Shown here: positions 4,881-45,895 of the stretch, piece by piece
Numbering within the stretch: position 1 is the first letter of the stretch
How the letters are laid out: each line of letters opens with the position of its first letter
Assembly: GCA_973895155.1 (NCBI GenBank)
Contig: OZ316894.1
Location: forward strand, 24,426,709 to 24,490,708
Direction of reading: 5' to 3'
Source of the DNA: Marsupella aquatica
Taxonomy: Eukaryota > Plantae > Marchantiophyta
DNA: 64,000 bases
The notes under the pieces: generated by a model
The model's database searches: none
Seen by the model: the letters and a program-made list of their open reading frames with translations, nothing else
Told to the model about the DNA's origin: nothing
Made by a program: the position numbers and the translations under genes

Positions 4881-4939
4881 GACTGGAGGGAGGAATCACG
4901 ACTGGAGGGAGGAATCACGACTGGAGGGAGGAATCACGA
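4881..4939. repeat. Tandem repeat, 19-bp unit x3
   Basis: gactggagggaggaatcac repeated three times. Confidence 0.95.
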
Positions 4940-5804: not shown

Positions 5805-5923
5805 TATTGAAATAAATACTAGTCATGGAGAAGACCCAGTCACCCAACTGTGGTGTAGTGGTCTTATTGAAATAAATACCAGTCATGGAGAAGACCCTGT
5901 CACCCGACTGTGGTGTAGTGGTC
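5805..5923. repeat. Tandem duplication, ~60-bp unit x2
   Basis: tattgaaataaatac-agtcatggagaagaccc-gtcaccc-actgtggtgtagtggtc occurs twice. Confidence 0.85.
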
Positions 5924-8163: not shown

Positions 8164-8354
8164 ATCTTCCCCTTGACTCTGGTCTAGGGGAGAGTAATAC
8201 TGCCAATGTATATGATCCCTCAGCGGGAAGTTCTGGACAGAAACCAAACCGGTTTCCCTCTCTAACTAGAGCAAACCAGAACTAAGCCGTAGCCTAATAC
8301 ATAGGAATGAGGAAGAGCATATATCAGTAATTACAATGAATGTTTAAGAAAACT

Positions 8355-11300: not shown

Positions 11301-12669
11301 GACCTGACTTGAAGTTCACCATCAATAACGCTCCATTGATGAACATTTGAATCTAACACACCGAGTGAAATCAGATTCTTACGCATGCCAGGTACATACC
11401 TGACTCCGGACACTGTGCGCACAGCGCCATCAAACATTTGAATCTTCACAGACCCAATTCCCTCAATTTGACAGGAGTGATCATTTCCCATCAGAACTGA
11501 ACCGTTTGAAATAGAGTAAGAACTGAAAAACTCACGAATGTAACAAATATGAAAAGAGCAAGCACAATCAAGAATCCACACATCATCTGCTCTCCTAGAT
11601 GACGTGCACAGGGCATACTCCCGGCTTCATAAAACATACTCATCATTGAGTAAATCAGCTTCTTCATCAGCCCTAGCCATATTTGCCGATGAAGTTTCCA
11701 CTGCCTTTCCCTTACAGTCTCGCTTGAAGTGTCCAACTTGGTTGCACTTCCAACATGTCACCTGCCTCCTCTGAGGGGATTTACCCTTGGACTTAGATCT
11801 GGATTTAGATCTAAATTGGGTTCTACGGTCCCTAGTTGGTCGCTGCATACTCCTCCCACGGTTAACATTGAGGGCAGCACCAGATGATGAAGGCTGTGAC
11901 GTGATGTGCATCTTCTGCTGAAGATCATCACTAAGCAGAGAACTTACCACGTCATTGTATGAAATGGTATCCCTATCACGATGCAACAACACTCGTGATA
12001 GGGACTGGTAAGATGGAGGCAATGAACTAAGAAGCTGCAGAGCCTTCGTCTCATCATTCAAAGTCTCCCCAAGGTTTTCCAAGTCAACGACCATGTCGTT
12101 GAAAGCATCGACATGGTCTTGCAACTTCGTACCGGATTCCTTCATCCTGAAACTCATCAGTTTGTAGGAAGTGTAGAGCCGGTTCGACAACTCCTTGCGG
12201 TGATACTTGCTCTGCAATTCTGCAAACAAGGACATGCAATCCTTATGTGCACCCAACTACTTGATGATGGGAGGCATGAGATAGAGTGTAACACACCATA
12301 CTCCCTGCTCCTGCATGCGGTCCCATTGTTTCTCATCAACATCGTCTTCACGAGGGCTCAGCAGTTGGCCCATCCCTGACGCATAGAGCACTCCCTTCAC
12401 TTGCTTCTCCCATAGCAAGTAGTCAGAGCGCCCATCATATTTTGTCACTTCATACTTGGGGGTCCCCCAAGCTTGAAAGTCCCCATCTTCTTCTTTGGCA
12501 CTACCGTGAGCTCCGATAGTAGTACTGCTTCCTCCACCACACGCCGCACCGGTGATGGTATCGGTGTCACGTGCTCTTCCTCCTGCTCCTCTCTCTGCCC
12601 CTGAAACCTCCGCGGTGATCCTCGTGCTTCAAGTTCCACGTCTTCGAAAAACTCCTCCGAATCACTCAT
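8355..12669 (-). pseudogene. Disrupted gag-pol of copia copy 1
   Basis: Motifs: zinc knuckle CWKCNQVGHFKRDC, protease WILDCACSFH, integrase WHSRLGH...CEHC, RSDNG and QQNGVAER, RT YVDDML, RNase H STTEAEY and KHIDVRYHFIR. Premature stops at ~12257, ~11063 and ~8784; frameshifts near 12460 and 10860. Confidence 0.93.
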
Positions 12670-13823
12670 ATGAGAAAATCACAAAAAATGTTGTTTTTCA
12701 CAACTTCTCAAAAAACTCGAAACTGAACACCACCGCGTAGCCCACAAAGCTAGGAGTCCAATACTGAAAACCGAAATCAAAATCAAAATTTGACGGAAAA
12801 GTTATTCAAATTTCGGTCGAGGTGGGTAAAACCTTGGGAAACTCCCCCGTTTTGACCACCTCAGGGAATAACCGAAATACCAAGTACAACCCATTGTCAG
12901 AATTGCGATGTGATCGGTGCGTTGCGTTGCCAACTTCAATGGCTACGACCTCGCCGAAAAATAACCAAAAAAGTTACCATTCGGCGGATGAAATCTTTGT
13001 CGGACGGTCAAAAAATAGCTCTCTAGTTTTTTGGAATATTCTATGACCCTTGTACAGGCCCTGTGGGAATTTTGGAAGAACAATCGAGGGGCTGACATGT
13101 GTCCTCGAACCCCCAAAAACCCCTACCACCCTTCGTCGTCGAAATCTGGTCGCGCGCGCAGAAAATACACGCGGCAGAATATACCCCTCGACACCAAACG
13201 CAAGATATCTCACTCGGGTTTTGACGAAATCAAGATCCGATTTCAGATTTGGAAACTAGACTCCGAGGCGATGAAGATCGATATAAGAAGCACCCAAAAC
13301 GAGGAAATAACGAGAGAGAAAAAAATTGGTAAAGATGACAGATTTTTCTCAATTGCCATAGCCAATTTCGAATCAGTTTTTCAAAGAGAAAAAAATGGTA
13401 CCTTGTCAACAACAAATGTTGATCAATTGCACTTGGTGCCGTCACCAAGTCCAACAAGGTAATTGATTTTTGCTTAGCCTTCCTCTTTGCATCAAAGAGC
13501 CAATCCCGGACTCAAAACAATCGTCTTGCCTCAATCTCTCCGTTGAGTCAAAACACTTGACGCTTCTCCCTCCGAGTCGATTGCCAACTTTCTTCACAAA
13601 ATCCAGAACGACAAAAACTTAGATCTCTCTACACCACGAGCTCCGTTCAGCGATTTCTTCACACCGTTAGAAAGCTCTTGCCCTGATCTATCCGTTGAGC
13701 CAATAAACTCAAAGTTCCATGCGACGGAACTCTGGGAAATCCACCGACACTCAACGCTGGAAAAACCGTCATGAAATCCCGTCACGAACACACATCACCT
13801 CCCAAGCATGCTCTGATACCAAT

Positions 13824-14208
13824 TGTTGAGCATAGACGACGATTGCAACGGCAAGCCCCTGAACCATCCAACGCACAATAGTCGACACAAGAGATACGTG
13901 GTTCACCTCCTTGAGGCTACGTCCACGGGAACACACAAGAGAGCTTTACTGAACTCTAAGCCCGTCGGCTATACCGAGTCTCCACAGTGTAAGCTCTCCC
14001 TATCTCTCAAGTGACTCCATAACAATGAGCCTTGGTTCTACCTCTCCAAGCACACATGCCTCTTATGATATAGTGTGCAACTTAGTTGTACCTAACCACA
14101 TAGTTGTACCTAATCACGTAGTTGTACCTAACCACGTAGTTGTACCAACCCACGTTGTTGTACCAACCACGTCATACCTAACCTAGACGTAAGAGTAAAT
14201 ACCCAACA
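13824..14208 (-). repeat. 5' LTR of copia copy 1, with five ~18-bp U3 repeats
   Basis: Adjacent to the PBS. tagttgtacctaaccacg-type units at 14083-14171. Confidence 0.97.
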
Positions 14209-17203: not shown

Positions 17204-20200
17204 ATGGCACCAACTATGGAGTCTGTGGCTGTCCAGCACGCACCGAGTCTGGATGCATCGCTCAGCAAGCTCTCAGTGGAAGAGTCGCAGACGAGGGAGT
17301 ACATTTTCCGATCGAAGCTGCCGGATATTGAACTGTCGAATCACATGAGTTTGGCAGACTACAGCCTCGAGAGGGCGCCAGAGAACCTGGATCGGATTGC
17401 TCTCCTAGATGGGCCGACAGGAAAGAAGTGGACGTACAGGGAGACCGCTCTTCTGGCGAAGAAGGTCGCAGCAGGGTTGGACAAGCAAGGAATTGCGAAA
17501 GGTGATGTGATCGCGCTCCTGCTCCCGAACTGTGCCGAATTCGTGCTGTGTTTGTTGGGCTCCGCGACTCGCGGCTCCATCGTCACTACGTGCAACCCGT
17601 TCTACACGGAGAGAGAGATCGCCAAGCAACTTAGCGCGTGCAAGGCCAAGCTCATTGTCACTCAAGCCGCTTTTGTTGACAAGGTCCGAGACTTAGGAAT
17701 GACGATGATCACAGTGGACTCTCCTCCGGAAGGCGCCCTACCCATCAGCGTTCTGTTTGACAACGACGAAAAGGACGCCCCCAGAGTAGAGATCAACTCA
17801 GAGGAAGTCGTATGCCTGCCGTACTCCTCCGGTACCACTGGGCTTCCCAAGGGCGTAATGCTAACTCACAAGAGTCTAATTTCCAGTGTCGCGCAGCAGG
17901 TGGATGGGGAGAATCCCAACTTGCACTTCACAGCTGACGACGTCATCGTTTGCCTGTTGCCTATGTTCCATATTTATTCCCTCAACTCTGTTCTTTTCTG
18001 CTCCCTGCGCGTGTGCTGCACCATAGTGATAATGCCGAAGTACACTATCCCTCAACTCTTGGAGATGATTCAAACGTACAAGATCTCTCTCCTGCCTGTG
18101 GTTCCCCCTGTGGTGCTGGGCATTGCGAAGTCTCCCATCGTGGAAAACTACGACCTCAGTTCTGTGAAGTACATCATGTCTGGAGCCGCTCCTCTCGGTA
18201 AGGAGCTAGAAGACAAGTTCCAAGCGAAATTTCCCAACGCAGTTCTTGGCCAGGTATAGTAGACAGACGCTTGATCTGTCAGCGTCACTTCATATCCAGC
18301 CACTTTCTCTCCTGACAAAAGTTTGCTGATCTTCCTCGCATTCTTGTCCACGGAATTGCTTTTCCGGTTGTAGGCCGAGTCAGGGAGAGTAGTGGAGATG
18401 TGGGCACATTGGGTGTTCATTGTTTTCTGGTACCCATTGATTTTTTTCAACCCCCTGGTTGTCTGTCCTGTGTCTTCAAAGCGTCTGCTTTCTGGAAATT
18501 CTTAGCAGAGGCCTCTTGTTCACCCCTAGCCTCCTCTGGGAATTGCAATTAGATTCTCCAAAGCTCGAGTTCGCTACGCGGTATCCTCTGTGGCTAGTTT
18601 CTGGAGGATTTGGTGTTGTGTGCTCCAGTTTCCCCTCCAGCGGCGTTGTGTTGCACGATGGACATCTCTCATCTCTCTCTTATGTGTGTGCAGGGTTATG
18701 GGATGACGGAAGCTGGCCCAGTGTTGAGTATGTGCCTCAGTTTTGCAAAGCATCCTTTCACAGTGAAGTCAGGATCATGCGGGACAGTGGTTCGCAACGC
18801 AGAGGTGAAAATTGTGGATCCCGAAACTGGGGTTTCTAGGACCTACAACGAGCCTGGAGAACTCTGCATACGTGGACCACAAATAATGAAGGGTACGGTA
18901 CGATCCCCCAGTGGAATATGTACTAGTGCAAATGGACACCTCTCTTTCTAGGACAGTAGTAGTTTAATCCCCTGGTCGTGGGACAGGGTGAGGCTTGTCG
19001 TAGCGTGCAGATCGCTGCTAGTTGTTCCGGGGCCCCTGCGCGATCTCCTGTTTTCTTATTCTATGGTGAAATTCATTTTTGATCTGGCAGGCTATTTGGA
19101 CAACCCCGAGGCAACCTTAAATGCGATCGACAAGGAAGGTTGGTTGCACACTGGTGATATCGCGGTTATTGACGAAGATGAGGAGGTATTCATTGTTGAT
19201 CGCGTGAAGGAGATTATCAAGTTCAAGGGCTTTCAGGTAGCTGACTTGAGTCTTTACCTTTCCGAAGATCCCGTCGGTCGCTGTTGCACCTGCGTTGTAG
19301 CCTACATTTACTCTTTAGCCGTATGTCTACAATGTGACCGTAGAGGTCTGTTTTTCCAGGCCTATGGTTTTCGTGGGTTGGCTCTTGGGCTTCGACTTGC
19401 TAAAACTGTCCCCTGTGGCTGAATTAAGTTCTTCTATTCTCTGCTTCACCTTGTTGGATTGCGAAGGCCAAGTTTTAAACCGTACGAAATTGTCTTCGTA
19501 CAGGTTCCACCGGCTGAACTGGAAGCCCTTCTCGTATCTCACCCATCTATCGGGGATGCAGCTGTTGTTTCGTAAGTACCTGTCTTTTCGTGGTGGAGAC
19601 TTCGTAATTATTAGCTGTTGATTAGCAGTTGATGCGATTGCTACGACGGAAGTGGTATGGATTGTGTCGATTTTGGATCCTCAAAGGATTTGCAATTTTC
19701 AATGCACTGTTGATTTTTCTCACATCAGCCTTGTCCATTTGCAGTAAGCCGGATGAGATTGCAGGAGAAGTCCCTGTTGCATTTGTAGTCAAAACCCCTG
19801 ACGCGAAGATCACTGAGGATGAGGTTAAGGAGTTCATTTCGAAGCAGGTAATTCTCCTCCTTCATATGGATTCTTTCTTTTGAAGCCTGCCCATAGAACC
19901 TTCAATTAACGCGCAATTCAACACAAGTCTAGATTATTGAATAGGGAGCAAAAATGTGATTTTAGCCCCGATGTGCATATTGGACTTCCAGAAATCGTAC
20001 TACATCTCTCCTCGATCGTGAAGGAATTCGAGTCGGCAGCCTGCACAGCTTGCATGTTTCGAGAATAGATCAAAATCCATCTATTTGTTTTTGTTTAGGG
20101 TTTAGTGTTTATAATACGATGCAGTACGCCTCTGTCTTAAATTAAATTCGTCGTCTTGTGCAGGTTGTCTTTTACAAAAGGTTGCACGGTGTATATTTCG

Positions 20201-25674: not shown

Positions 25675-26604
25675 ATGTCCGTGATGGCCGCATGTTCTCA
25701 TTCCATGGCGGTGGTAGGGTTGGGTTCTCTGGCCTTGAATGCACCCTCTGTGAAGAATTCGCCTACTTCGCCGGCGTTGGTTTCTTCAGGGGTAACTGCT
25801 TCGATCTCAGCGTTCGAAAGACCCTCGACTCAGACGAGAGGAAGGGTTTCCGTGAGGTCTCCGTTCGTTGGAAATACGCAGCCTCTTTATTCCGATCAAG
25901 ATGGGAAAGGTTTGAGGACATCGAGAGCCGTCCGAGTAGTGAGCAAAGGAGCAGCTGAACCCCTGAAAGTGATGATTGCCGGAGCGCCAGCATCAGGGAA
26001 GGGCACTCAGTGTGAATTGATTGCAGAGAAGTTTGGTCTGACGCACATTTCTGCGGGAGATTTGCTGCGGGCGGAGGTGGCTGCCGGAACGGAAGCTGGT
26101 AAAATTGCTAAAGAGTACATGAATGCAGGAAAGCTCGTCCCGAGTGAAATTGTGGTGGCTATGGTGAAGAATAGACTTGCTCAGCCCGATGTAAGCACAG
26201 GTTGGTTACTGGATGGTTATCCTCGAAGCTTGGAACAAGCAGAGGCACTCGAAGCAGTGGGCATTCGCCCCGAGATCTTCATTCTTCTGGATGTGCCCGA
26301 TGATATTCTGGTGACTAGGGTGGTAGGAAGAAGGTCGGATCCCGTGACAGGTAAAATTTACCATATCACTTTTGCTCCCCCGGAGAATGAAGAAATTGCA
26401 AGCAGGTTGGTGCAGAGATTTGACGACAAGGAGGAGAAGGTGAAAGCACGCGTGGACACTCATAATGCCAATGTGGCCTCAGTCATTGGGGTGTACAACG
26501 ACATAATTAAGACCGTGAACGGAGATCGCCCTAAGCTTGAGGTGTTTGAGGAAATTGCAAACCATCTATCAGCTCTTCGGAAGGAGGGGTCACTCGTAGT
26601 ATGA
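25675..26604 (+). CDS. ADK: Plastid-type adenylate kinase, single exon, with predicted transit peptide
   Basis: P-loop GAPASGKGTQ, HISAGDLLR, WLLDGYPR and LID-region RVVGRRSDPVTGKIYH. The ~90-aa N-terminus is Ser/Ala/Arg-rich. Confidence 0.93.
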   Translation: MSVMAACSHSMAVVGLGSLALNAPSVKNSPTSPALVSSGVTASISAFERPSTQTRGRVSVRSPFVGNTQPLYSDQDGKGLRTSRAVRVVSKGAAEPLKVMIAGAPASGKGTQCELIAEKFGLTHISAGDLLRAEVAAGTEAGKIAKEYMNAGKLVPSEIVVAMVKNRLAQPDVSTGWLLDGYPRSLEQAEALEAVGIRPEIFILLDVPDDILVTRVVGRRSDPVTGKIYHITFAPPENEEIASRLVQRFDDKEEKVKARVDTHNANVASVIGVYNDIIKTVNGDRPKLEVFEEIANHLSALRKEGSLVV

Positions 26605-28643: not shown

Positions 28644-31016
28644 GTTTGCTTAGAAAGCACAATAGTACATCAAAAGTCTAATGGTCCCATCCTTCTTGGT
28701 CACAAGCATAATTTGAGTCCTGCAAAAGCATTTGCAAGCTTATCCACTAGCCTTTATCACTGAGTGAACCATTTTCACAACCACTACAGTACTTCTTCCG
28801 TATAGGCCTTCTTGACAGATTTATTTAAATAAAATTTCCCTCATCATGAAGAAGTCTTGTTTTGGATGTAAACTGATTCTTTAAAGCGTGTGTAGATCTA
28901 ATGACAAAACTAACTCTGTTCTTGTGACCTTAAGGACCACAAGATCCTCTTTTCACTTAAAGCCTATTATTTCACCAACTTTGATCTAAGCTCAGAATTT
29001 ACAAAACAATATAATTCACCTGTGAAAAAATAACAGGATATAAGGGCATATATTGGTGTTACTTACACTGCAAGTTGTTGCAACCCTTTACTATGCGTTT
29101 TTGCAAAAATGCTGTTAGTTTGTCAATGGTGAATTTTGCTACAAGTATCCTGTTAGTTTTGCTGCATTGATTAAATACTTGCACATCCAAAAACTTCTAC
29201 TTTCGGAACCCCTCAAGATCCTCATGCAAATCAATTACTACTGATTTATTACCAAAAGGATCACGGTTAGCAAACAAAGATTATTGATAAAGTTTACATA
29301 CCCACTACAATTGCTACTAGCCTAACTGCTTACTCATTGAACTTGAACAGAGGTGGCATCACGAGAGACCTTGCAAAGAAAATTATTCCCTGCTATTAAT
29401 GTTCATCAGCAACTTGCCCCAATCCCTGTTTTTATTAGTTCTGTCCCCAGAGTTGCAGTCTCCAGAATTCACTCTAGACAGTGCCCTGAGAGTAGCTTCC
29501 AATAGCATTTATATGGTTATAAATACCAGGGTAAGGGTAGTAGCGGTAAGATATTTTGGGCATTAATGCAACTTGAAGATTGAACAAATAGACAGAGCGA
29601 GAGACTAGTGGTGATCTGGACCTGGTAGCTAATCTGATGACATCAACTTAGAATAATTAAATTTTTGCCTTTCACTCAAAGAGTGTTTGGGGTACACTGA
29701 TAAATCTCTTTCCAAAGCTAATGATCAGAAACTAGACAGGAGCAAGATGCGAGGAATATTTTTCTATGGACTTTGATTGAAGTCTGTGAAATTTCATGGT
29801 CTCTACCTGTGATAACTTACCGTGGACAGTCCATCCTAATGTATATTACATGCCCTAGTATTATCTAAGTTTGCTTATGATCATCTATTTTTAGAATTGA
29901 TGCTCTCGTGCACCATGCAACCTCCATGGACTGTTGTCATGCAAACCCGTGTCAGCGCTTAACCACGTACTCGGGTTTGAGCGGCTATCCTAGTTAGCGG
30001 TGATCCTGATTAATTTAGGGCATTGCCAGGTAGATTTAGCGGCTGGTGAGCGATCGGCGCTAGGATTGCGGCTCGGGATTTAACCCGCCTCGCCGCCACC
30101 TAGGAGACGGCGGCACCAGATAGGGCCAGGTGGTCAATTAGGTTATTTGGCTGGTAGGTTTGCCTAACCTGGGATTATGCTATCTTGCACACCACTGTTT
30201 CGTCCTTTATGGTGAGGTTTCAGTGGTTGAGAGGGCTCCTCACAGATTGCCTTATCGGGTGAGGCAGGCCTTCCCTTGGGATCCAGGGGGTATACCTCCC
30301 GGGCCGCTCTTCATTCACTTCAGTTCTGAAGTGAATCCGGTTACAGTTTCTAGTTTCTTGCTTAGCAGCGCTCGTCGATTACACGTAGATGATCGTTGCA
30401 TAGCGTGCCTGTCAGTTACATAGACGGCGGTCGGTTTTTCATCGTTGAGTAGTGCTTACATTGCTTCCCTACGGTTTTCCGTCCATTCTAGTAAAGCGCA
30501 TTACAGATTCGCTTACTCCGGACTCACTTTGTCTCACGTTTTTATTCACTTCAGTGGTAGCCAGACTAGAAAATGTGAGCCGCGCCCTCATCCCTATGTT
30601 GGCTAGATTACATTTCTAGTTGTGTTGCTCCTAGGATATGGTAGAGCAGTTTGAGGTTATTTCCAGACTTTCTTACAACTGTGTACTCAAAACCTTCTCC
30701 ACATTCCATATCAGTAGGATTGCCCTACATTTTGTGTGGTAATTGGGCTCTAGTATCGTGTGAGTCACCATGGATGGGCTGCATGGCGCTCCCCAGGGTT
30801 TTCCTCATCATATTGACTTTCTGTTCATCATCTTACCCAAAGACCATTTTTGCCAATTTATTGTCATACATTTTGGTGTTAATTTCTTACGGGAGATTGA
30901 ACAGTCCCCCTTGCCATTGTTGCTCCCCATTTTGCGCTATGGTCTGCACTGGAAAGTCGGTTTTTACCTATTGGTTTAAAGATATCTACTACCATCTCAC
31001 ACATACTCAGTAGCTT

Positions 31017-33674
31017 ATGAGTGAATCACCTCGCTACTGGTTGCGCAGCCAGCCCCACTCCCCTGTATTCTCACGAGCCTGGGGTAGGCGTGCCCCACGT
31101 ACACAGCGGGCACGGCTCACATTTTCTAGTCCATCTACCACTTTCTCCACGCTTCAGATTGGGGGGGGACAGGAGGAGTACACATCACAATCCGAATCCG
31201 AAGAAGAGGGTGAATTCGACGGTTCTTTCAACTTTCCAACTTATACAATGGCAGGAATGCAGTCACACGGTCCGGCCTACACCCTTGACCAAAAGTTCAG
31301 TGGCAGACCAGGGACCATCCCGCTACGAGAATTCAAAGCATGGTTTGTTGGAGTCATGGCAGATTTGAAGAAGAAGTATAAATCTGAGTATGATGTACAA
31401 TTTGCTTTCATTCAGCTGAAACGGTACCTATGTGAAGAAGCACTTGCCACGTATGAGCAGCACGAAGATACATTGGTGCGGCAGGAGATGAGAGCCAACC
31501 CAGCCTACATTGCTGCCATCAAGGTTGTTGAAGAGCAGCAACTCACTGTCCAGATTACAGATTGGGCAAAGGACCCAAAGCAGAATGGTGGAGTACCACC
31601 AATCACGGTGACACTCACGTAGGCTCAGATTGGAACAGCCACCGCAGGGATTGCCCCAAAGGCTTTGGTAGATCTTGGAGTCACAGATCCGGTAGCAGAT
31701 TTCTTTGCCATACTGAAAGAAGAATTCCCAGAGAGGAACTCAATCAAGTTGGCAGAGCTGAACAACTTCATTCGTAAGAAGGATGAGACGCTAAAGATGA
31801 TGTACCGAAGGATTGAGCGTCTGCAAAAGGAGACAGAGAGTTGCACTGATCGGGAAGCAACGCACAAGTACTTGCGGGCCTTGCAAGCAGATGACCTAGA
31901 CCTGCACAACAAGGTCACTACTAGCCTGTTCTCAGGAAGCAACAAGAATTACACCCTGTAGGATGTCTATGAACTTGCAGAGAAGATGAACTGGGCGAAT
32001 GAGAACTACGAGATCACGCCCAAGCCAAAGACCAGAGCTGCTGCGACAGACAGCACGGCCCCAGTTGGGCAGGGAAGACAACCTGCCAACCCACGACAGT
32101 CGCAAGGAAAACCGTTTGAGAGGGGACAACAAGGTCATAACTCCAAACAGGTGAATGCGGCTGCACCAATACAATCGTGCAATCATTGTGGGTCATTAGA
32201 CCACAACTCACCTCAATGCAACATTCAAAAAGAGAATTTGCATTGTTCTGCATGCGGCAAGACTGGACATGTGGAGTCAGTCTGCTTTCAAGCACATCCA
32301 GAACGGAGGCAACAGAAATTGTTACCCCGATAATAGTCGGCATATCCTGCCCAACCGCAAAGGAATGTGAAGCCTATAGCCAGTACCAAGGTCGCAGACA
32401 ACTCTTCTCAAGCATCCAGCAGTGGTAACAAGAATGAGGCTAAGGCAACTAAGTCCAAGCAAAAGATGGACGCTCTCAAGGCAGAGCTATTTGAAGCTTT
32501 TGACAATCGAATGTCTGCATTGTTGGTACAGGCTCTGCAGAAGGCCCCTTCACCATCAACTGGAGGTAGCAACCCAAGCACCTCGTTACCTTATGACTTG
32601 AATGGGTATGTAGTCACTAGGTCCGCACGAGATAAGGCTACAGGAGACAACCAGACTGCCGCTACTACACTACATAGAGAAGCAGAGCCAAGGAGCTCTA
32701 TGCCCAGTAGTTTCCGTCAGATGTCCATGGATGAAGAACAAGACATCATTTCTAACAACCATCGGCAGTTGCCCTTGGATACCAATGAAAGGGGTCAACC
32801 AACTGAAGTGCTACCTGCATCCACTGCCTTGGCATCTAGGCAGGATGCTAGCCAGGTTTTCAACAAGAGGCTAGCGCTATCGGGTGCGGAGTTCACCAAG
32901 CGGTTGATGCAGACCCCACTGTTTTCTTGTGAAGAGATGGGAATTACACCGCAGAGGGTCATAGCGTTGCTCCAAGGGGCAGGAATGTCACTATCAGCAC
33001 AAGGTGGGCCTAGTCTGATTGTTTTACCTACTGACACTGCTGTGACCACACCAGCGGCATTGGCAGAAGCTGTTCAGTTTCCCACTGAAGTCACAGCCAC
33101 ACAACCTGCACCACCATTGTTAGTGGATACACTGCTTGCACCTCGTTCTTTGGCAACAATTGATCGGTCCCAGCATATCCACATGCTCATCAGGGATCTG
33201 CCTTTTGTCGAGCCTGGCCAATATGCATCTTCAAAGGTTGGAATACTAATGGTTGATAATCGACAATCTGTCGTTACTATTCAAGGGGCCACACCCAGGA
33301 TTGTTATCCTTGACACTGGGGCACAACCTGCCATCATCAGTCAGCGCTTTGCTGAATCTTTGGGTATCACTGGCGATGCCTTACGACCAACAAAGTGGAA
33401 CATCAGACTGGCCAGCGGTGCAGTGGAGACAGGATTGGCAGAGACCTCCAAGCCGATGCAAATTTGTTTCAATCCCAAGTCCAGCACCGCGTTGACCATT
33501 CACATGCGCTGCCTTGTGACCAAGGCTACACTGTATGATCTACTGCTTGGCCAAGAAGTACTATTCCCGCCAGGTATCATGATTGACAACTGGACGGAGA
33601 TTGCCTATTATAGGCCTGATTGGGAGACTGGTGGACAGCGAATGGGAACTATCCCATTGGCGTTGCATGGCTGA
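31017..33674 (+). pseudogene. Gypsy gag (two CCHC zinc knuckles) and aspartic protease, one frame with in-frame stops
   Basis: ORFs starting at 31017, 31665, 31986 and 32367 share a frame, with stops at 31620, 31959, 32331 and 33672. Motifs: CNHCGSLDHNSPQC, CSACGKTGHVESVC, VILDTGAQP and LLLGQE. Confidence 0.88.
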
Positions 33675-33922
33675 CAAATAATCCCACCGTCACACACAGT
33701 GTTCAAAGAGGCCAACATGATGGAGTTGATCCCTCCAACCACGTATGAGGCAGAGTACCCGTCTGTGTCTCATACATCTAACACCATGGATTATATTTTG
33801 ACTCTGGAGATTATAAACCAGATCAAGTCCCATGGGTGGCTCACGATACTATTGTCGCCACTGCCACCAAGACAGAGTATTCACCAGATACACAGTTGTT
33901 ACTGGAGGAGGCATAGACCCGC

Positions 33923-34960
33923 ATGACAACAACATTGGCGTATTGTGCAACGCACACTCAGGATAAGCCACATGCCTACCAGATTGCTTCACCAGTATCC
34001 AACACACCCATCCAGTGGTGCCCTCCATCAAAAGGCATCACATTTGTGGAATTATTTGGGGGATTGGCTACTGGGCTTGAGGCCGCTCTCAAGTGTGGAT
34101 TACGGGTACACAAGTATGTGTACTGTGACACAGATGCTGCCGCACGCCTATTGCTGCCTCAACGCCTTGCCGCCCTCAGTAAGCAGTATTCTCAACTCTT
34201 GCCTGCCACAGCATGGGAGTCTGCTCTCACATTTCTACCGCCGGATATCAAACTTATCCAACAACGTCACATCCAATTACTAGGCCCTATACATCTGGTC
34301 GTTGGTGGATGGGAGTGCCAAGGGTTTTTTGCAGCAGGCACAGGCGGAGGTCTGCGGGATAACCGTTCAATGCTGTTCAAGGATCTACTTCGGGTACTTG
34401 GTTGGGTACAACTACGCAACCCATGTGTGGGTTACATCCTGGAGAACGCACCTGCACAATTTGATTCCTGAACGGATGTGTTGAAAGATTTTGCTGTTGT
34501 TCAACACTTGTTGGGTGATCCATTCCTCATTGATGCAGCTCAATGCGGTTCTTATGCCCATCATTTACGGAATTTGTGGACTAACCTAGCACCACATAAT
34601 ACTCTTAAGCTTGCTCTGTTGGAGACTAAGCCAGAGCCTACACAACAATTACAACAAATTCTGGATCCTGGCAGTCTTCCCCGCCCGGTGGTACGGATTG
34701 AACGTGCACCGTTCTTTCCAGCCAACCGCATAGGCACACTGCGAGCAGTCTGGCCCACACTACTATCCTTCCCTGGCTCCTTTGCATTTCAGGGAGAAGG
34801 TCCAGGGCTGGTATTTTGATAGGCCACCCAACAGTGGCAACCACCATCCCTAGAGGAACGCGAGCGTGCTATGGGATTTCAGATAGGGAGCACTCAACAC
34901 CCTAGTCTTACCAAACATCAACGCAACAAGTTGCTAGGCCAAGCACTTGACCTCACAGGA
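33923..34960 (+). pseudogene. DNMT3-like C5-cytosine DNA methyltransferase domain within the gypsy polyprotein
   Basis: All in one frame: motif I FVELFGGLATG, IV LVVGGWECQGF, VI YILENAP, VIII IDAAQCGSYAHHLRNLWTNL, IX EERERAMGF and X QRNKLLGQALD. Stops at 34469 and 34817/34820. Confidence 0.9.
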
Positions 34961-35079
34961 TTTTTCCTGGGTACTGTCCTCATGTTTGGCTTTTCAAATG
35001 CTCAGCACTGCACACCATACCCCGAAGGCGGTAGCTACAGCTGAGATCCTTTCTCCCACAGATTTACATCTTCCACGGC

Positions 35080-38000
35080 TTGGTACTTACCATTTCAGAC
35101 CAGTGGCTGGGGGGAGAGGTCCCAGTTAATCTTCAACCACGTGCTTTTAGCCACAGCTCTTCCACAAATATAGAGGAAGACAAATCAAAAGAGGAGCCAC
35201 CACCTTCAGCTGAGAATTTTGAGTGGACCATGGGAGAACAACTGACGGCAACCCAGAAGCTGCGGATGAAGAAACTCATCAATGAGTACAAAGATTGCTT
35301 TGCATTCTCTATGAAGGATTTAGGGAAGTGCAACATAATGGAATTCACAATTCCATTGACTGATGAGACACCGATATTTTGGAAGCGGCATCGACTCAGC
35401 CAACATGAGTGGGAGTTGGTGGATGCCAGATGCAAGGAACTACATGAGGCAAGTCTCATCAGACCTTCAAGTTCCCCTTTTGTTGCTCCCACAGTCATGC
35501 CAGCAAAGAAGGATAGCAGCGGGCTATGGTCAAAAAAGAGGATGCGTGGGGATTATCGGGCACTCAACCAGGTAACTCAGCAGGATAGATATCCTGTCCC
35601 CACGCTAGAGGAGATCTTTGATGGGCTAGGGAAGTCTCGATAATTCTCTATTTTAGACTTGCAGTAAGGGTTCAACCAAATCGTTGTGGCAGAGAAGGAC
35701 AGAAAGAAGACTGCATTCCATGACAGTGACAAGTTGTGAGAATTGCTATACATGCCATTTGGCATAGTGAATGCAGCCATCTTCTTTCAGAAGGTCATGG
35801 ATATAGTGAAGGAAGATGCAACACACATCAAATGTTACATTGATGATGTCGTAGTGCACAGCCCTTCATTTGATCAACAAATGGATGATTTGGAGGATCT
35901 GTTCAAAAGGCTCAGAAAAGCTAATCTCAAATGTCATCCCAAGAAATATGAATTTGGGGTGAACACTGTGATCTATTTGGGATACCGAGTGATTCCAGAT
36001 GGACTCATGCCAGAGGAGGCCAAGGTTCTGGCTATCAACAACATGAAGGCACCTACAGATGTCAACAAACTACGCATCTTTCTAGGTCTGTGTAATTACT
36101 ACCGCACACATGTTGAGAATTTCAGTACCATTGCAAGCCCTCTGAATCAGTTGTTGAAAAAGGACACCCCATGGTGCTGGACTGCAGAACGGCAAACCGC
36201 GTTTGAAAATATCAAAGCAGTACTGACCACACACCCAGTTCTCCGTCGGCCCAATTTCAAGATCCCTTTCATTCTTCACACTGATTGGAGTGCTATTGGC
36301 CTCGGAGCCATTCTAGGACAGCAGGATGATGGTGAACCAGAGTATGTTGTTGCCTATGCTTCACGCAGTAACAACAAGGCAGAAAGCAACTACTCATCCT
36401 ACGAAGGAGAGCTACTTGTTGTGGTATGGGCTGTGGTACATTTCCGGCCATACCTGTATGGTAAAAAGTTTGTATTGTTTACAGATCATCAACCACTTAA
36501 ATGGTTGATGACCAATGACAAACTGACCGGTAAGCTAGCTAGATGGGCATTGATCTTGCAAGAGTACACTTTTGATGTCATTCATCGACCAGGAATCACC
36601 CACCAGAATGCTGATGCAATGTCACGTAGTCCTCTGAGTACAACAGAAGATCACACGGCTGCAAGACAAGATTTTGATGCTACCGTAGAACCAACCGCTA
36701 CTGCTTGCTTGGCACTATTGGCAGATGTGCAGGTTGCTGAGGCTACATCTGTAGACATATGGAATGATTTTGCAACCCTACACTACATACAACTAGGGGA
36801 ATTCCCTTCTAATGCTACCCTCATGGAGAGAGACCGCATCCAGCACAGAGCACGCCGCTATGCATGGAAGGGTAACCATTTGATCCGGCTATTCCCATCA
36901 GGGGATCGTGTGGTCCCGCGTGTGCTGGAGAGACCAACACTTATACAGAAGATCCATTCAGAGTTGGGGCATTTTGGCATCAAACGAACCCACAGCTTGC
37001 TTACTCCCCACTTCACGTGGCGAGATATGTACACACAAGTGAGGGATGTGTTGGCTCGATGTGCAGAATGCGATCGAGTAAAGAGTTCATTCTCAGACCG
37101 TCAGATGCAGTTGCGACCTTTGCCAATTCAGGGATTATTCTATCGTTGGTCCTGTGACTTGGCTGGTGAATTACCGGTTACACCTAGGGGTAATGTCTTT
37201 GTGATGATTATGATTGAGCACTTTTCAAAATGGATTGAGTTAGTGCCACTGCGTAACAAGTCATCCCACAGCACCAGCCAGGCATTTCTACAACGGGTTC
37301 TCAGTCAGTTTGGCGCATGTGCTGAATGCTTAACTGATCAGGGAACAGAGTTCAGAGGAGAGTTTCAAGACCTTCTTGACCATGCGCTCATTGATCACAG
37401 GAGGACATCACGCGATCATCCACAAGCTGATGGTCTTGCAAAACGCATGGTCCAGACATGTAAAAAAGGGCTACGCAAGATTTGCCTTACCAAAAACAAG
37501 GCTGATTGAGATCTACAATTACCCTATATTGCTATGGGTTATCGTATGTCCAAGCATGCAGCTCTTTCATCATTTTCTCCTTATTTTCTGTTATTTGGGC
37601 GACATCCGGTACCACCCTCTGCCATTGCACCGCAGATGGACCAGGTAGTGGATCTAGACAATGAACAGGTTTAGGATCAGGTCATTTCAGACAGAGCAAC
37701 TTTGTTCAAGCGAGTCATGCCTATGGCTATGCAAAACCTTTGCATTGCTCAACATCGGGATACTCTGCGCTATGCTTACACCCGTGGTGGCAGCTACCGT
37801 CCCAAAATCCGCAAATTTGAGGTTGGGGATTATGTCTACTTACAACGACAGACCACAGATACCTTGGATACTTCTGCAGGTCGGATCATTCTTCGAGTCA
37901 AGGAAGTCCAGACGTCTGGGGTGCTTTTGTTGGAAGGGTCAGATGGTCGTACCATCACTGATCACTTCAAGAATTGTGGTCCATGCCACTTACCTAATCT

Positions 38001-38226
38001 TGATCCTACTATAATCATTGCAGACTGGGTTCCACCTGTGGATCATCCCTGTCAAATTTTTTGTCGCATTGATGATGCTTATCTTATGTTGCTTTGCGAT
38101 CGTTGTAATAGCGGTTTTCATTTGTTCTGTCTTACACCTCCACTGCACAACATTCCAAAAGGTCAATGGTTTTGTCATGCATGCACTAGGCAACACCATC
38201 CTACCACCAGTCGACGAGGCCAGTAG
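35080..38226 (+). pseudogene. Gypsy RT-RNase H-integrase with C-terminal PHD finger
   Basis: One frame with several stops. RT: DYRALN, YMPFG, YIDDVVV. RNase H: TDWS, YSSYEGE, TDHQPL. Integrase: H..LGH...C..C, CDLAG, TDQG. PHD: CQIFC...LLCDRCNSGFHLFCLTPPL..IPKGQWFCHAC at 38050-38184. Confidence 0.92.
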
Positions 38227-38574
38227 GTCACCGACTGGGGGGGGAGTAAATATGATGCTTTTCTTTTTCTATTTCTGCATGCAAGTAGACAGCTGATAGG
38301 ATAGTAAGTGTATTCACTAGACAGGTTTGCAGTTACGACACATCTGGTACATCGATGCACTCTAGCACGACACTGTGACACCTTTTACGCACATCAATAC
38401 CCTTCTTAGTCTGATCGGTTTTCAACAGGAAAGTTTGTATCTCCCTTCATATCCAACGAAACAGTCTCCTCTTGGCCTTAACAAACTCAACTCAGAAAAG
38501 TCTTTCCAATGACTTGTCAAATCCTATTGAGAAATTCAAGACTTACAAATTTTGAAAAATGAGGGCTCAGGCTG

Positions 38575-38870
38575 GGGGGTCTCACTATATGGATGCTTCC
38601 CCATCACCTCACATTTTTAGGCCTCAGACCCACTAAAATGTAAGATTTGTTTTTAGATTTTCAACCCCTATAAAGTTGAAATATCTTTAGAATATTCTAA
38701 AAAAGTGGTTAGAAAGACCCTAATGTTTTTATAAATCTCAAAATTGTATTTAAAAGATCCTATTATTTTTCTGACAAAATTTTTAAATATTTCATTTGAA
38801 CCAATAAAATGACCCTATCATTTGTTGCTGCATATTACATGTCATTTTTGTAGAAGTGAAACTCCCAAGG
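38575..38870 (-). repeat. Dispersed ~280-bp repeat, copy 2
   Basis: Reverse complement of ~670-950. Confidence 0.75.
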
Positions 38871-39336: not shown

Positions 39337-42300
39337 TATTGAGCAAAGACGACGATCGCAACGGCAAGCCCATGAACCATCTAACGCACAATAGTCGACA
39401 CAGAGAGATACGTGGTTCACCTCCACATGAGGCTACATCCACGGGAATACACAAGAGCTTTACTGCACTCTAGGCCGACCGGCCATTCCAAGCATCCACA
39501 GCACAAGCTCTCCCTATCTCTGAACTGGCTCCGTAACAATGAGCCTGAGTTCCACTTCTCCAAGCAAACACCGCTTGGTTATAGAGTGTGCATAGCATGA
39601 CTAACCTAACCAAGTCTGCGACTAAGGTTAGTCTTAACTACGGTACATTTGTAACTCTAGACCTAAGAGTAAATCCTAACAATCTCCCCCTTGACTTTGG
39701 TCTAGGGGAGGGTAAAGACTGCTACCAATATGACTGCTCAGCGGGAAGTTCTGGAAAGAAAAACCAAACCGGTTTTTCCCTCTTTATACGAGAGTGGACC
39801 AAAACTAAGCCGTAGCCTATACAAGGAATGAGCAAGAGCATATCTCAGTATCTACACAAATGTTAAGTAACCCTACTTGTGAGGCAATTGCAAAACCTGC
39901 AACGCATCACGGTGTCTAGAAAAACTCTCCAAAGGAATCACTTTGGTAAAAGCGTCAGCCGGGTAAAAGCGTCAGACACAACCTGCTTGATAAAATGGTA
40001 CCTAACGTCGATGTGCTTCACTTTGCTGTCCATCACCTGGTTCACAGCAAGGTGGAGTGCACTCTGACTATCACAATGGAGCTTCACATTCCCCTGTGGC
40101 AATCCCATCTCAGTGATAAGTCTATCCAACCAAATTGCTTCCTTTGCTGCTTCCGCTGCTGCAACATACTCTGCTTCTGTAGTAGACAGAGCAATACACT
40201 TCTGCAAAGTAGACCTCCAACTTATGCATCCACCTCCAAGTGTGAACACATAACCTGTTGTTGACCTCCTCCGATCCAGATCCTGTGCATAGTCAACATC
40301 TATATAGCCCATCAATGATCTAGCATTATCAGCATGTGCATCAAACAATAGACCATGATCCACGGTACCCTTCAAATACCGAATAATCCACTTCACTGCT
40401 TCCCAGTGTACCTTCCCTGGATTCGACATGTACCTGCTCACCTTGTCCATAGCCATGGCAAGATCAGGTCTAGTGCAAGTCATCAAATACATGAGACTCC
40501 CCACTGCCTTGTCATACAGAACCTTTGACATCAACCCCTTCTCTTTGTCATCCGTAGGACAGAACGCTAATGATAACTTGAAGTGTGGAGCCGACGGGGT
40601 ACTTACTGGCTTTCTATTCCCCATGTTGAACCTTGCAATTACCTTCCTCGCATAACTGCTCTGCGTCAACCATAGCTTGCCAGCCTCCAAGTCCCTAGTG
40701 ATCTCCATACCCAAAATCCTCTTAGCTGGCCCTAAGTCCTTCATCTTAAACTTTGCACTAAGTAGTGCCTTGAGCTTAACAATCTCAGACCTATCCTTGG
40801 CTGCAATTAGCATGTCATCCACATAAAGTACTAAAACAATGAACCCAAAGACAACATTCTTCACCGGTTTAAGATACACACATGGGTCAAACACACTCCT
40901 GTGAAAGCCTTGTGCACGAATCCAATCATCAAACCGCTTATTCCACTGTCTTGGTGACTGCTTCAACCCGTACAAGGATCTCAGCAATCTGCAAACCAAA
41001 TCCTCTTGCCCTTTCTTCACAAAACCTAACGACTGTCTCATGAAGATCACCTCTTCCAAGGTGCCATAGAGGAAAGCTGTGACAACATCCATCTAATCTA
41101 GCAACAGACCAAACATAACAACAAGCACACACAATAGCCGTATTGTTGAGTACTTAGCAACTGGTGAGAAGACCTCATTGTAATCCACACCTTTTTCCTG
41201 TGTGAATCCCTTGGCTACCAACCTAGCCTTGTAGACCTTCGATCCACCTCCTGTGGGCTGATCCTTCAGCTTGTATATCCACTTGTTGTCCATCACTTGC
41301 TGTCCCTTAGATAGCTTGACAAGCTCCCAAGTTTTGTTGTCCTTCAGTGACTGCATCTCCGTTTGCATTGCTACAGTCCACTCCTGCTTCTCCTTTGAAG
41401 CACTTGCTTCATGAAATGAAGAAGGTTCACCTTCTTCCAAAATCAACGCATCACCCTCATCGTCAGTAACAAAATCCTCCTCTTGCAACTGAGATGAATC
41501 AACCCACTGTCCATACCTTGGTGGAGCGCGTACAGTGCGACCAGATGCTCTTCTAGCCGATGACTCCGGTTGATCTGCGTATGCTGGTACAATTTGAAGC
41601 TCAGCAGCATCCACTTGCTGCTCACCAGCATCAACAAAATCCTCTGGTTCCTCTGGCATAGGAACCAGCTCCATAATTAGAGCAACTCCTTCTCTCCGAT
41701 CATGCACCTCATAACCAATCTCCCCCTCAACGAGATCCGGGATAGGAGATTTTCCTTTGTCAGTACGAGAGACCTGAGTATTCTCTCCCTCTTTCAATAA
41801 TCTGGATTCATTGAAGGAAACATCCCTACTGACAACGAGCTTACAGGCAATAGGATCCCATAGCCTATAGGCTTTCACACCACTCTGGTACCCAAGAAAA
41901 ACACATTCCTTGGAGGTAGGATCCAACTTGGTCCTATTCTGCTTCGGTGTGAGAGCATATGCATCACTTCCAAAAACTACCAAGCCATGATAGTTTGCTT
42001 GCCGCTTATAGCGCATCTCAAACGTCGTTTTGAAATTGATAGCACTAGAAGGAGAAAGATTTACCAAATAAGTTGCGGTATTGACAGCTTCTGCCCAAAA
42101 TTCTTGTGGTAAACCTGATTGGCTCAACATACTCCGTGACCGCTCCAACAGTGTCTGATTGAGCCTCTCAGCGACACCATTCTACTGTGGAGTATAAACT
42201 GTGGTGAGATGGCGAGTTATCCCCTGTTCTGAACAGTACTCTTCAAATTCCATTGAAGTGTACTCCCTGCCGTTGTCTGACCTCAGACTCTTCACCCTTG

Positions 42301-45300
42301 TATCCAAACACTTGACCGTTTTTCTAGTCTGATTCTCCACCTGGGCCTTCTATTTCTTAAAAATGGACAAGACATCAGACTTATGCGTCATGAAATAAAT
42401 TTACACAAATCTTGAGTAATCGTCAATAAATGATACATAGTACAACTTTCCAGAGTGTGAGGGAGTCGGGGATGGACCCCACACGTCACTATGTATGTAC
42501 TCAAGAACCGCTTTGGAATGATGAGTTCCAACACCAAAAGCACGACGATGTTGTTTTCCAAGAATGCAATGCTCACAGAACTCTAATTTACAAGATTGCA
42601 AATCAGAAATGAGTCCATTCTTCCATAAGATAGCCAAACCCTTCTCATTCATGTGGCCTAGCTGTGAATGCCACAGTTGAGTCATCTCCTCGTGAGACTT
42701 GGTTACATTGGCCTCTCCACATACAGTATTGCCCTGTAACACATACAAATTCTTTTGTCTGGTCCCCTTCAAAATCACTGTCTCTCCCGACCTGACTTGA
42801 AGTTCACCATCAATAACACTCCATTGATGACCATTTGAATCCAACACACCGAGTGAAATCAAATTCTTACGCATGCCAGGTACATACCTGACTCCGAACA
42901 CTGTGCGCACAACGCCATCAAACATTTGAATCTTCACAGACCCAATTCCCTCAATTTGACAGGAGTGATTATTTCCCATCAGAACTAAACCGTTTGAAAC
43001 AGAGTAAGAACTGAAAAACTCACGAATGTAACAAATATGAAAAGAGCAAGAACAATCAAGAATCCACACATCATCTGCTCTCCTAGATGACGTGCATAGG
43101 GCATACCCCCGACTTCATAAAACATACTCATCATTAAGTAAATCAGCTTCTCCATCAGCCCTAGACACATTTGCCGATGAAGTTTCCGCTGCCTTTCCCT
43201 TACAGTCTCGCTTGAAGTGTCCAACTTGGTTGCACTTCCAACATGTCACCTGCCTCCTCTGAGGAGATTTACCCCTGGACTTAGATCTGGATTTAGATCT
43301 AAACTGGGTTCTATGGTCCCCAGTTGGTCGTTGCATACTCCTCCCATGGTTAACATTGAGGGCAGCACTAGATGATGAAGGCTGTGACGTGATGTGCATC
43401 TTCTGCTGAAGATCATCACTAAATAGAGAACTTACCACGTCATTGTATGAAATGGTATCCCTATCATGATGCAACAACACTCGTGATAGGGACTAGTAAG
43501 ATGGAGGCAATGAACTAAGAAGCTGCAGAGCCTTCGTCTCATCATTCAAAGTCTCCCCAAGGTTTTTCAAGTCAACGACCATGTCGTTGAAAGCATCCAC
43601 ATGGTCTTGCAACTTCGTACCGGATTCCTTCATCCTGAAACTCATCAGTTTGTAGGAAGTGTAGAGCCGGTTCGACAACTCCTTGCGGTGATACTTGCTC
43701 TGTAATTCCGCAAACAAGGACATGCAATCCTTATGTGCACCCAACTGCTTGATGATGGGAGGCATGAGATAGAGTGTAACACACCACACTCCCTGCTCTT
43801 GCATGCGGTCCCATTGTTTCTCATCAACATCGTCTTCACGAGGGCTCAGCAGTTGGCCCATCCCTGACGCATAGAGCACTCCCTTCACCTGTTTCTCCCA
43901 TAGCAAGTAGTCAAAGCGCCCATCATACTTTGTCACTTCATACTTGGGTCCCCCAAGCTTGAAAGTCCTCATCTTCTTCTTTGGCACTACCGTGAGCTCC
44001 GGTAGTAGTACTATTTCCTCCACCACACAGCACACCGGTGATGGTATCGGTGTCACGTGCTCTTCCTCCTGCTCCTTTCTCTGCCCCTCAAACCGTCGTG
44101 GTGATCCTTGTGCTTCAAGTTCCACGTCTTTGAAAAACTCATCCAAATCACTCATATGAGAAAATCACAAAAAATATCATTTTTCACAACTTCTCAAAAA
44201 ACTCGAAACTCAACACCGCAACGTAGCCCACGAAGCTAGGAGTCCAATACTGAAAACCGAAATCAAAATCAAAATTTGACGGAAAAGTTATTCAAATTTT
44301 GGTCAAGATGGGTAAAACCTTGGGAAACTACCCCGTTTTGACCACCTCAGGGAATAACCAAAATACCAAGTACAACCCGTCGTTGGAATTGCGATGTGAT
44401 CAGTGCGCCGCGTTGCCAATTTCAATGGCTACGACCTCGCCGAAAAAGAACCAAAAAAGTTACCGTTCGGCGGATGAAATCTTTGTCGGACGGTCAAAAA
44501 ATAGTTCTTTGGTTTTTTGGAATATTCTATGACCCTTGTACATGCCCCGTGGGAATTTTGGAAGAACAATCGAGGGGCTGACATGTGTCCTCGAACCCCC
44601 AAAACCCCCTACCACCCTTCGTCGTCAAAATCTGGTCGCGCGCGCAGCAAATACACACGGCAAAATGTACCCCTCGACACCAAACGCAAGATATCTCACT
44701 CGGGTTTTGACAAAATCAAGTCTGATTTCAGATTTGGAAACTAGACTCCGAGGCGATGAAGATCGATATAAGAAGCACCCAAAACGAGGAAAGAACAAGG
44801 GAGAAAAAAATTGGTAAAGATGACAGATTTCTCTCAATTGCCATAGCCAATTTTGAATCAGTTTTTCAAAGAGAAAAAATGGTACCTTGTCAACAACGAA
44901 TGTTGATGAATTGCACTTGGTGCCGTCACCAAGTCCAACAATGTAATTGATTTTGCTTAGCCTTCCTCTTCGCATCAAAGAGCCAATCCCGGACTCAAAA
45001 CAATCGTCTTGCCTCAATCTCTCCGTTGAGTCAAAACACTTGACGCTTCTCCCTCCGAGTCGATTGCCACGACAAGAAACCCCGATCAGGCAAAAGAGGA
45101 CTCCATAGCCGGTCAGAAAATCAGAATGCTTCTTTTGCTCGTCCCGTCACACACGGTACACACTTGGTAACAAATCAGCTACCAAAACAAACAGCTCATC
45201 CCGATCTACAAGCAGAGCTACAGCATGCGATGCCTCCTTCGCCGTAGAGCTCAAACCGTCGAGAAAACAAACTCTGGTCCCTCCTCCGAAAAACCGTCGA

Positions 45301-45895
45301 ACACGAATGGTGCCAACTTTCTTCACAAAATCCAGAACGACAAAAACTTAGATCTCTCTGCACCACGAGCTCCGTTCAGCGATTTCTTCACACCGTTAGA
45401 AAGCTCTTGCCCCGATCTATCCGTTGAGCCCATAAACTCCAAGTTCCCTGCGACGGAACTCTGGGAAATTCACTGACACTCAACACTGGAAAAAATCGTC
45501 ACAAAATCCTGTCACGAACACACGTCACCTCCCAGGCATGCTCTGGTAATTGTTGAGCAAAGACGACGATCGCAACGGCAAGCCCATGAACCATCCAACG
45601 CACAATAGTCGACACAGAGAGATACGTGGTTCACCTCCACATGAGGCTACTTCCACGGGAATACACAAGAGCTTTACTGCACTCTAGGCCGACTGGCCAT
45701 ACCAAACATCCACAGCACAAGCTCTTCCTATCTCTCAACTGGCTCCGTAACAATGAGCCTGAGTTCCACCTCTCCAAGCAAACACCGCTTGGTTATAGAG
45801 TATGCACAGCATGACTAACCTAACCAAGTCTGCGACTAAGGTTAGTCTTAACTATGGTACATTCGTAACTCTAGACCTAAGAGTAAATCCTAACA
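39337..45895 (-). mobile_element. Full-length Ty1/copia LTR retrotransposon, copy 2 (same family as copy 1, different LTR variant)
   Basis: 345-bp LTRs at 39337-39681 and 45551-45895 (~13 differences counted by eye). TSD GGCAC at 39332-39336 and 45896-45900. PPT at ~39682-39694 and a damaged PBS at ~45540-45550. Internal region highly similar to copy 1. Confidence 0.97.
39872..44155 (-). pseudogene. Disrupted gag-pol of copia copy 2
   Basis: Same domain motifs as copy 1. Stops near 43493, 42401, 42350, 42183 and 41093, and a deletion in RNase H near 39965. Confidence 0.9.

Follow-up and report, generated by a model that had tools for sequence, protein, structure and literature searches.

The window, i.e. 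the whole analysed stretch of 64,000 nucleotides of Marsupella aquatica DNA, contains a dead 8.4-kb retrotransposon copy of the Ty3/gypsy type at positions 29935-38372, with TG...CA ends and a 4-bp target duplication (Table 1). The domains, from the protease onward recognised by Pfam, follow each other in the order gag, protease, reverse transcriptase (RT), RNase H and integrase, and the closest PDB match of the RT is Ty3, as expected of Ty3/gypsy elements; the TG...CA ends, a target duplication within the 4-6 bp range and the polypurine tract (PPT) are also those of this group. A conventional LTR pair was sought within the window and none was found, and the copy departs in this respect from the canonical layout of one LTR at each end. 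No tyrosine recombinase is encoded in the element; a DDE integrase and a protease are present, so it falls outside the DIRS, PAT and Ngaro elements. The C-terminal chromodomain of chromoviruses was absent from the element by Pfam, with a PHD finger instead. The solved PHD fingers nearest to that of the window are those of CHD4, KDM5-PHD1, BAZ2, PHF21A and AIRE. These fingers bind H3K4 in its unmethylated state, which the ADD domain also recognises.

Table 1. Features of the Ty3/gypsy-type element in the window (positions are those of the window).
Feature	Position	Strand	Evidence or remark
Left target-site duplication, CTGT	29931-29934	.	Repeated at 38373-38376
Repeat A, left end, starts TGTCATG	29935-30542	+	Right edge from sister-copy joints 30542->38245/38247
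Predicted RNA 5' end (self-primer)	30326-30336	+	35 nt past TATA-like word at 30291
Predicted self-priming primer-binding site, directly after repeat A	30544-30554	+	11-nt complement of 30326-30336
gag with CCHC-type zinc knuckles, stop-broken	31248-32330	+	33% to relative P0058 over 31290-33749
Aspartic protease (DTG)	33237-33671	+	PF13975 E 8e-7, PF13650 E 3e-6
DNMT3-like C5 cytosine methyltransferase	33992-34960	+	Linear order of motifs I-X; interrupted by three stops; one Arg of motif VIII replaced
Reverse transcriptase, YIDD at 35836, three stops	35380-36000	+	PF00078; top PDB match Ty3 Gag-Pol, E 3e-59
RNase H	36178-36579	+	PF17917 E 1e-36
DDE integrase with H2C2 zinc finger	36925-37850	+	PF17921, PF00665
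PHD finger, integrase C-terminus	38035-38199	+	PF00628 E 2.4e-9
Polypurine tract (G8)	38237-38244	+	Same place before B in relatives
Repeat B, right end, ends CACGACA	38245-38372	+	Further A-B pair of sister copies absent here
Right target-site duplication, CTGT	38373-38376	.	Matches 29931-29934

Directly past the predicted primer site, the leader carries a 35-nt inverted repeat (89%; 30553-30587 and 31108-31142) which may form a long-range RNA pairing. Sister copies with internal deletions were also detected, with joints corresponding to 32920-33828 and 34404-38295 of the window; they are possible non-autonomous derivatives. Elsewhere in the window, a 4-coumarate-CoA ligase gene (17204-19419), a homogentisate 1,2-dioxygenase gene (59627-62774) and an intronless ORF of a plastid-type adenylate kinase (25675-26601) were recognised. 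The first exon of the ligase gene (17204-18256) matched Calypogeia fissa at 88%, Marchantia paleacea at 70%, and mosses and seed plants at about 60%; by this one gene, a leafy liverwort is the most probable host. Two related copia-type elements lie on the minus strand (7779-14123 and 39339-45852), each with near-identical LTRs (99% and 97% over 300 nt). A small, MITE-like high-copy repeat occurs in inverted copies at 38570-38870, directly right of the element, and at 672-952; a 19-bp tandem array lies beside a copia LTR (7278-7778), and a tandem repeat of about 200 bp at 56420-57124.

According to the preliminary description, six C5-methyltransferase motifs lie between the protease and the RT in linear I-to-X order, intronless and in a single frame of the + strand. 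Direct reading bore this out: FVELFGGLATG begins at 34043, and the codon of the catalytic Cys lies at 34316, ILENAP at 34436, ERERAMGF at 34856 and RNKLLGQALD at 34922, and motifs I, IV, VI, VIII, IX and X are all present together with the catalytic Cys and the Glu-Asn pair. With the stops read through as X, the top PDB match of the domain in phmmer was human DNMT3A (E 1.2e-8), which indicates more than a chance resemblance. A family profile of 60 sequences ranked DNMT3A (9e-23) above DRM (3e-13), HhaI (2e-10) and DNMT2 (2e-6). The AlphaFold model of the domain had a pLDDT of 94.9, and its best Foldseek matches were DNMT3A/B along the length (E 3e-20, TMq 0.73). The profile ranking, the PDB match and the fold ranking agree with the proposed DNMT3-like identity and the absence of the DRM permutation; judged by profile and predicted fold, the window domain is nearer to DNMT3 than to DRM, DNMT1, DNMT2 or the bacterial enzymes. 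With PF00145, the decayed window copy reached 16.3 and 14.9 bits against a cut-off of 22, and the gathering score was passed by its intact relatives. The fold and the linear motif order are shared with human DNMT3A/B. In contrast to cellular DNMT3s, including the plant DNMT3 with DUF3444 (PMC6453930), the window domain has no PWWP, ADD or DUF3444, has GWECQ where those enzymes carry the Pro-Cys motif and is embedded in a polyprotein. The suspicion that GWECQ is a family variant proved correct: Glu occupies the position in 86 and Pro in 45 of the 131 aligned domains, Glu being the commonest variant.

The copy is pseudogenised, as had been proposed: stops interrupt gag, the methyltransferase, the RT and the integrase, and the methyltransferase is flanked on either side by frameshifts, through which the protease, the methyltransferase and the RT came to lie in three different frames. 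The methyltransferase frame is interrupted at 34469, 34817 and 34820. Also lost are an Arg of motif VIII, replaced with His at 34562 (Arg in 124/131 aligned domains), and the third catalytic residue of the integrase, which is Lys at 37441 and Glu in 65 of 69 related proteins. At two of the three stop positions in the methyltransferase, the contigs of sister copies have other letters than the window; the third was unlisted at the 70% threshold.

Protein searches resulted in 55 relatives of similar length and 76 longer ones. The named relatives come from Calypogeia fissa, Sphagnum balticum, Klebsormidium nitens, Haematococcus lacustris, Monoraphidium neglectum and, found later, Scenedesmus; no vascular plant was among the named protein relatives, most matches carrying no name. 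The K. nitens protein KFL_017580010 was a match at 35%. In the 76 long proteins, the domain is located after the protease or before the RT in 23 cases and after RNase H or before the integrase in 52, with one unplaced. The tree of the 131 domains, midpoint-rooted and built without a cellular outgroup, splits along the same line of domain order with an SH-aLRT support of 99. The window domain groups with the Calypogeia and moss-type copies (99 SH-aLRT), and Klebsormidium falls on the window's side of the main split of 99 support in this midpoint-rooted tree, where the K. nitens group is long-branched.

The metagenome loci analysed were the best 80 of at least 569 confirmed loci (at least 600 matches); they were chosen by methyltransferase motifs, and relatives without a methyltransferase could therefore not appear among them. 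The loci are called moss-type here, as two of them share 85-87% identity with the S. balticum protein. Among the best 80, the protease was found upstream in 70 of the 72 testable loci and the RT downstream in 60 of 61; both together were determined in 52 of the 54 loci where this could be tested. The methyltransferase between protease and RT, as the preliminary description had supposed, is thus a regular domain of the family. That a host DNMT3 retrocopy was captured by, or nested in, the window copy alone has a negligible probability: the order is the same in 52/54 loci, sister copies span the domain and it groups with element-borne domains of Calypogeia and the moss-type at 99 SH-aLRT, so a single capture is refuted, and nothing was found in its favour. 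At 43 of 63 moss-type loci, the methyltransferase and the RT are in frame, and in P0133 of Calypogeia fissa a single ORF runs from gag through RT; an intronless DNMT3 domain within a Pol ORF together with RT, as in Gypsy-Dnmt3 elements, is therefore found in both. In intact relatives, the domain order is gag-protease-DNMT3-RT-RNase H-integrase-PHD. For the moss-type family, the same 43/63 count led to the rejection of a programmed frameshift between the methyltransferase and the RT. The family profile at E<=1e-30 collected 632 clusters at 50% identity, not all of which were inspected. The scans of viral contigs for the family returned phage-like methyltransferases only (E 2e-9 or worse) or nothing. 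In two relatives, P0080 and P0114, a G-patch domain follows the methyltransferase.

Two distant families are represented by the contigs L098, with 41% identity, and L099, with the other domain order. Both are eukaryotic retrotransposon contigs lying within genome bins labelled as prokaryotic; a bacterial source of the domain by way of these contigs was not supported, since they look like mis-binned eukaryotic elements. In L098, gag-protease-methyltransferase (3-3488) stops at one in-frame stop before the RT (3492-6632). Many related proteins share this end point, which suggests a read-through with the methyltransferase made at Gag levels. The L098 assembly has identical 127-nt ends, as expected of a collapsed split repeat or a circle.

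Purifying selection on the methyltransferase, supposed earlier and also a property of Gypsy-Dnmt3 elements, was detected between two relatives: in the comparison of L019 with L020 the dN was 0.10, the dS 1.02 and the dN/dS 0.10. Between the window and L020, the dN was 0.43 and the dS was saturated. The signal was weaker among the recent copies. The ratio of shared to singleton N:S in 63 distinct moss-type copies was 0.73 for the methyltransferase (p 0.046), the weakest of the five enzyme domains, the values of RT, RNase H, integrase and protease being 0.33, 0.44, 0.54 and 0.56, respectively; that of the linker, 0.80, was not significant. The catalytic Cys is conserved in 131/131 aligned domains, the Glu of motif VI in 129/131, the Asn in 131/131, the two Arg of motif VIII in 124/131 and 122/131, and the SAM-binding Gly in 109/110. 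Alternatively, the methyltransferase could have no catalytic function and either be carried along or serve just to bind DNA, as the weak constraint among recent moss-type copies and the inactivity of the Klebsormidium domain in yeast, which its authors called inconclusive (PMC5890265), would allow. This is judged very improbable, as the Cys, the Glu-Asn, both motif VIII Arg and the SAM-binding Gly were kept despite saturated synonymous sites and across two domain orders. The domains of SymbioDIRS-Dnmt3 methylate CG in yeast (PMC5890265).

The ends of the relatives are built of two repeats, A and B, in the arrangement A1-coding-PPT-B1-nn-A2-B2, where A starts with TGTCATG and B ends with CACGACA. 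These are the DIRS-like split repeats of Gypsy-Dnmt3 elements, of which the window copy retains only A and B. Both ends were available at 20 loci, 12 with A-B-A-B and 8 with A-B. The flanking 4-mers in these 20 rows were identical in 13, differed by one mismatch in three and failed in four, three of the latter having truncated ends; four pairs of loci have a common insertion site, so that 10 of 16 distinct sites carry a perfect duplication. The spacer between B and A was 2 nt in 18 of 21 rows, and two of the remaining three show it on direct reading. The junction CACGACA-GC-TG directly after the G run or PPT was also found in L098 and L099. The DDE integrase is the probable agent of insertion, given the TG...CA ends, the spacer of 2 nt and the duplication of 4 bp; no recombinase is encoded.

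In contigs of sister copies (X1-X4, from four runs of two studies), position 38372 of the window is joined to 29933-29935, with two letters between them in some, and a second joint leads from 30542 to 38245/38247. The sisters of the window copy are therefore of the A-B-A-B form too, with A corresponding to 29935-30542 and B to 38245-38372, and the A and B of the window copy were probably left by recombination of B1 with B2 after insertion. L035 with A-B-A-B and L051 with A-B occupy one insertion site, their 3' flanks being 96-97% identical, which indicates that a long form can be shortened after insertion or by collapse of the assembly.

Repeat A likely holds the promoter and the RNA start. 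In 17 of 28 distinct moss-type loci, the 12 nt past A1 pair at 10/12 or better with the 12 nt starting 31-33 nt after the TATA; one further locus had no TATA match. The same pairing (at least 10/12) was reached at 5 of 2448 control positions, the offset having been picked after the data were seen. The 11-nt complement of the window was reached by none of 350 control 20-mers. A complement of 13 nt in the same geometry and of its own sequence was determined in L098. The window, the moss-type loci and L098 use different sequences, which means that the pairing was kept while the letters changed, and the site after A is likely a self-priming site of the Tf1 type. The primer helix did not show clearly when the predicted 5' RNA was folded to its minimum energy. 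A short perfect hairpin lies at or beside the predicted RNA start in the window (30313-30336) and in L098 (7228-7255). Self-priming has been described for Tf1/Sushi and Tcn1 (PMC6317226), to which the present elements are similar in that no tRNA site was recognised and the predicted RNA 5' end has a short complement in the sequence past the 5' repeat (PMC6317226). Tf1/Sushi and Tcn1 have ordinary paired LTRs and a chromodomain (PMC6317226), whereas split repeats, a PHD finger and DNMT3 are present here.

Taken together, we consider it rather probable that the dead copy belongs to elements whose polyprotein DNMT3 likely methylates their own cDNA and whose split repeats suggest integration from a circle with joined ends. 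The RNA would begin within A1, about 30-35 nt past the TATA box, and end in A2. Its first 11-13 nt would pair directly past A1 and prime the minus strand as in Tf1, the plus strand would be primed at the G run before B, and ordinary strand transfers would lead to a linear cDNA of the form (B+A)-coding-(B+A). This form follows, by textbook reverse transcription, from a primer site right after A and a PPT right before B, and so B+A would be the functional LTR. The cDNA ends would then be joined, creating the A2|B2 junction, and the integrase would cut the near-palindromic CACGACA-nn-TG inside one LTR and insert the DNA with a 4-bp duplication. The integrated A-coding-B-A-B would thereby correspond to (B+A)-coding-(B+A) with its ends joined, reopened at B|A of one LTR. 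The proposed junction may resemble the circle junctions of IS3 and IS30.

The cutting of palindromic circle junctions by retroviral integrases is a precedent for the circle step. In the 2-LTR circles of foamy virus and HIV-1, the DDE integrase cuts the palindromic CA...TG junction, resulting in integration-competent ends, this being a side route that uses the junction of the ligated LTRs (PMC1180852, PMC4372172). In the present element, in contrast, the cut would fall at an RNA-templated site within the LTR, and integration would require the circle. Circle, dimer and RT end-jump look alike in the integrated DNA, from which the whole cycle was read. The A2|B2 junction was flush in 16 of 21 rows and had a 2-nt overlap in three, 147 nt missing in one and 18 extra nt in one. 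The flush majority was counted against the circle, being more uniform than error-prone end-joining might give. So was the weak tendency of repeats to match within an element: the A2 nearest to A1 came from the same element in only 6 of 10 cases, and the B2 nearest to B1 in only 3 of 9.

A-B-A-B could also be produced without a circle from a linear molecule, by an end-to-end jump of the RT or as head-to-tail dimers, with two internal integrase cuts. The flush junctions and the 2-nt overlaps (3/21) fit a template jump, and the A-B-only copies with perfect duplications are expected from cuts at both internal sites. However, end-to-end joining and internal cleavage would still be needed, and the common site of L035 and L051 makes the short forms explicable after insertion or by assembly collapse; the linear route is regarded as quite improbable.

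The least certain step of the circle model is the last one, in which the methyltransferase, released by the protease, would methylate CG de novo on the cDNA or the circle and the PHD finger would guide the complex to nucleosomes. The same element could use the same circle route with its methyltransferase directed at the host chromatin of the insertion site, the PHD finger and DNMT3 working together as ADD and the catalytic domain do in animal DNMT3, or at RNA. The relation of the PHD finger to readers of unmethylated H3K4 speaks for such a target. The replacement of Pro by Glu in motif IV of 86/131 domains, by which the specificity may differ, and the lack of yeast DNA methylation by the Klebsormidium domain (PMC5890265) are in agreement with it. 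In contrast, the PHD finger is fused to the integrase and not to the methyltransferase, and the CG o/e of the coding parts of the element is 0.45-0.51, compared with 0.61-0.63 in the two copia elements and 0.82-0.83 in the two host genes of the window. Such a depletion would result from repeated self-methylation, but host methylation and age explain it equally well. The host-chromatin and RNA versions together are considered unlikely.

The element is of the KnitGypsy-Dnmt3 kind known from Klebsormidium nitens (de Mendoza et al. 2018, PMC5890265), here with a land-plant member. An intronless, non-permuted DNMT3 in a gypsy Pol under purifying selection is common to both, as are the DIRS-like split repeats with gypsy domains, stated for KnitGypsy-Dnmt3 in the legend of Fig. 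4c (PMC5890265). The present host, in contrast, is a land plant. The capture was treated as specific to the K. nitens lineage (PMC5890265), whereas related domains were found here in elements of a liverwort, a peat moss and chlorophytes, with two domain orders among them. In the available part of the text on KnitGypsy-Dnmt3 (PMC5890265), nothing is reported on its termini, its target duplication, how it is primed or how it integrates. Split direct repeats of the A-coding-B-A-B form are shared with PAT/Ngaro-like tyrosine-recombinase elements, including SymbioDIRS-Dnmt3, some of which also have a methyltransferase in Pol, and a circular intermediate has been proposed for the DIRS group (PMC7192593, PMC5890265). 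Unlike these, the present element has no tyrosine recombinase; its integrase is of the DDE type, a protease is encoded, and its TG...CA ends are flanked by 4-bp duplications. Streptophyte Gypsy-DNMT3 elements are mentioned in later papers, the available parts of which do not name land plants (10.64898/2026.05.21.726589, PMC12344493). Neither land-plant members of Gypsy-Dnmt3 nor circle-based integration of split-repeat gypsy elements was found in the searched literature, with most subscription journals and Repbase Reports outside the search.

The evidence is about evenly balanced on a wider reading, in which an old gypsy-type lineage of green plants, from chlorophytes to liverworts and mosses, would have its integrase attachment site inside the LTR, integrate two-LTR circles with a DDE integrase and methylate the circle with DNMT3. 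Moving the attachment site inside the LTR would mean that the cDNA must circularise, and this route, for which the odds are the same, would differ from both LTR elements and DIRS. According to the available part of a review, transposons encoding a methylase occur in green algae and charophytes but are missing from land plants, for example tracheophytes (PMC6338049); the present land-plant element contradicts this printed absence, at least for bryophytes. What had been an oddity of one species becomes a broad lineage with the 632 clusters of the family profile. Its ends would offer a natural case of obligate circle integration by an integrase of the retroviral type, long debated for retroviruses, and the proposed integrase substrate, 16 bp, is testable in vitro. 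The intact liverwort and moss domains are new candidates for the activity assay, in which the Klebsormidium domain had shown no methylation, and their bryophyte hosts are plants whose own DNMT3 is studied.
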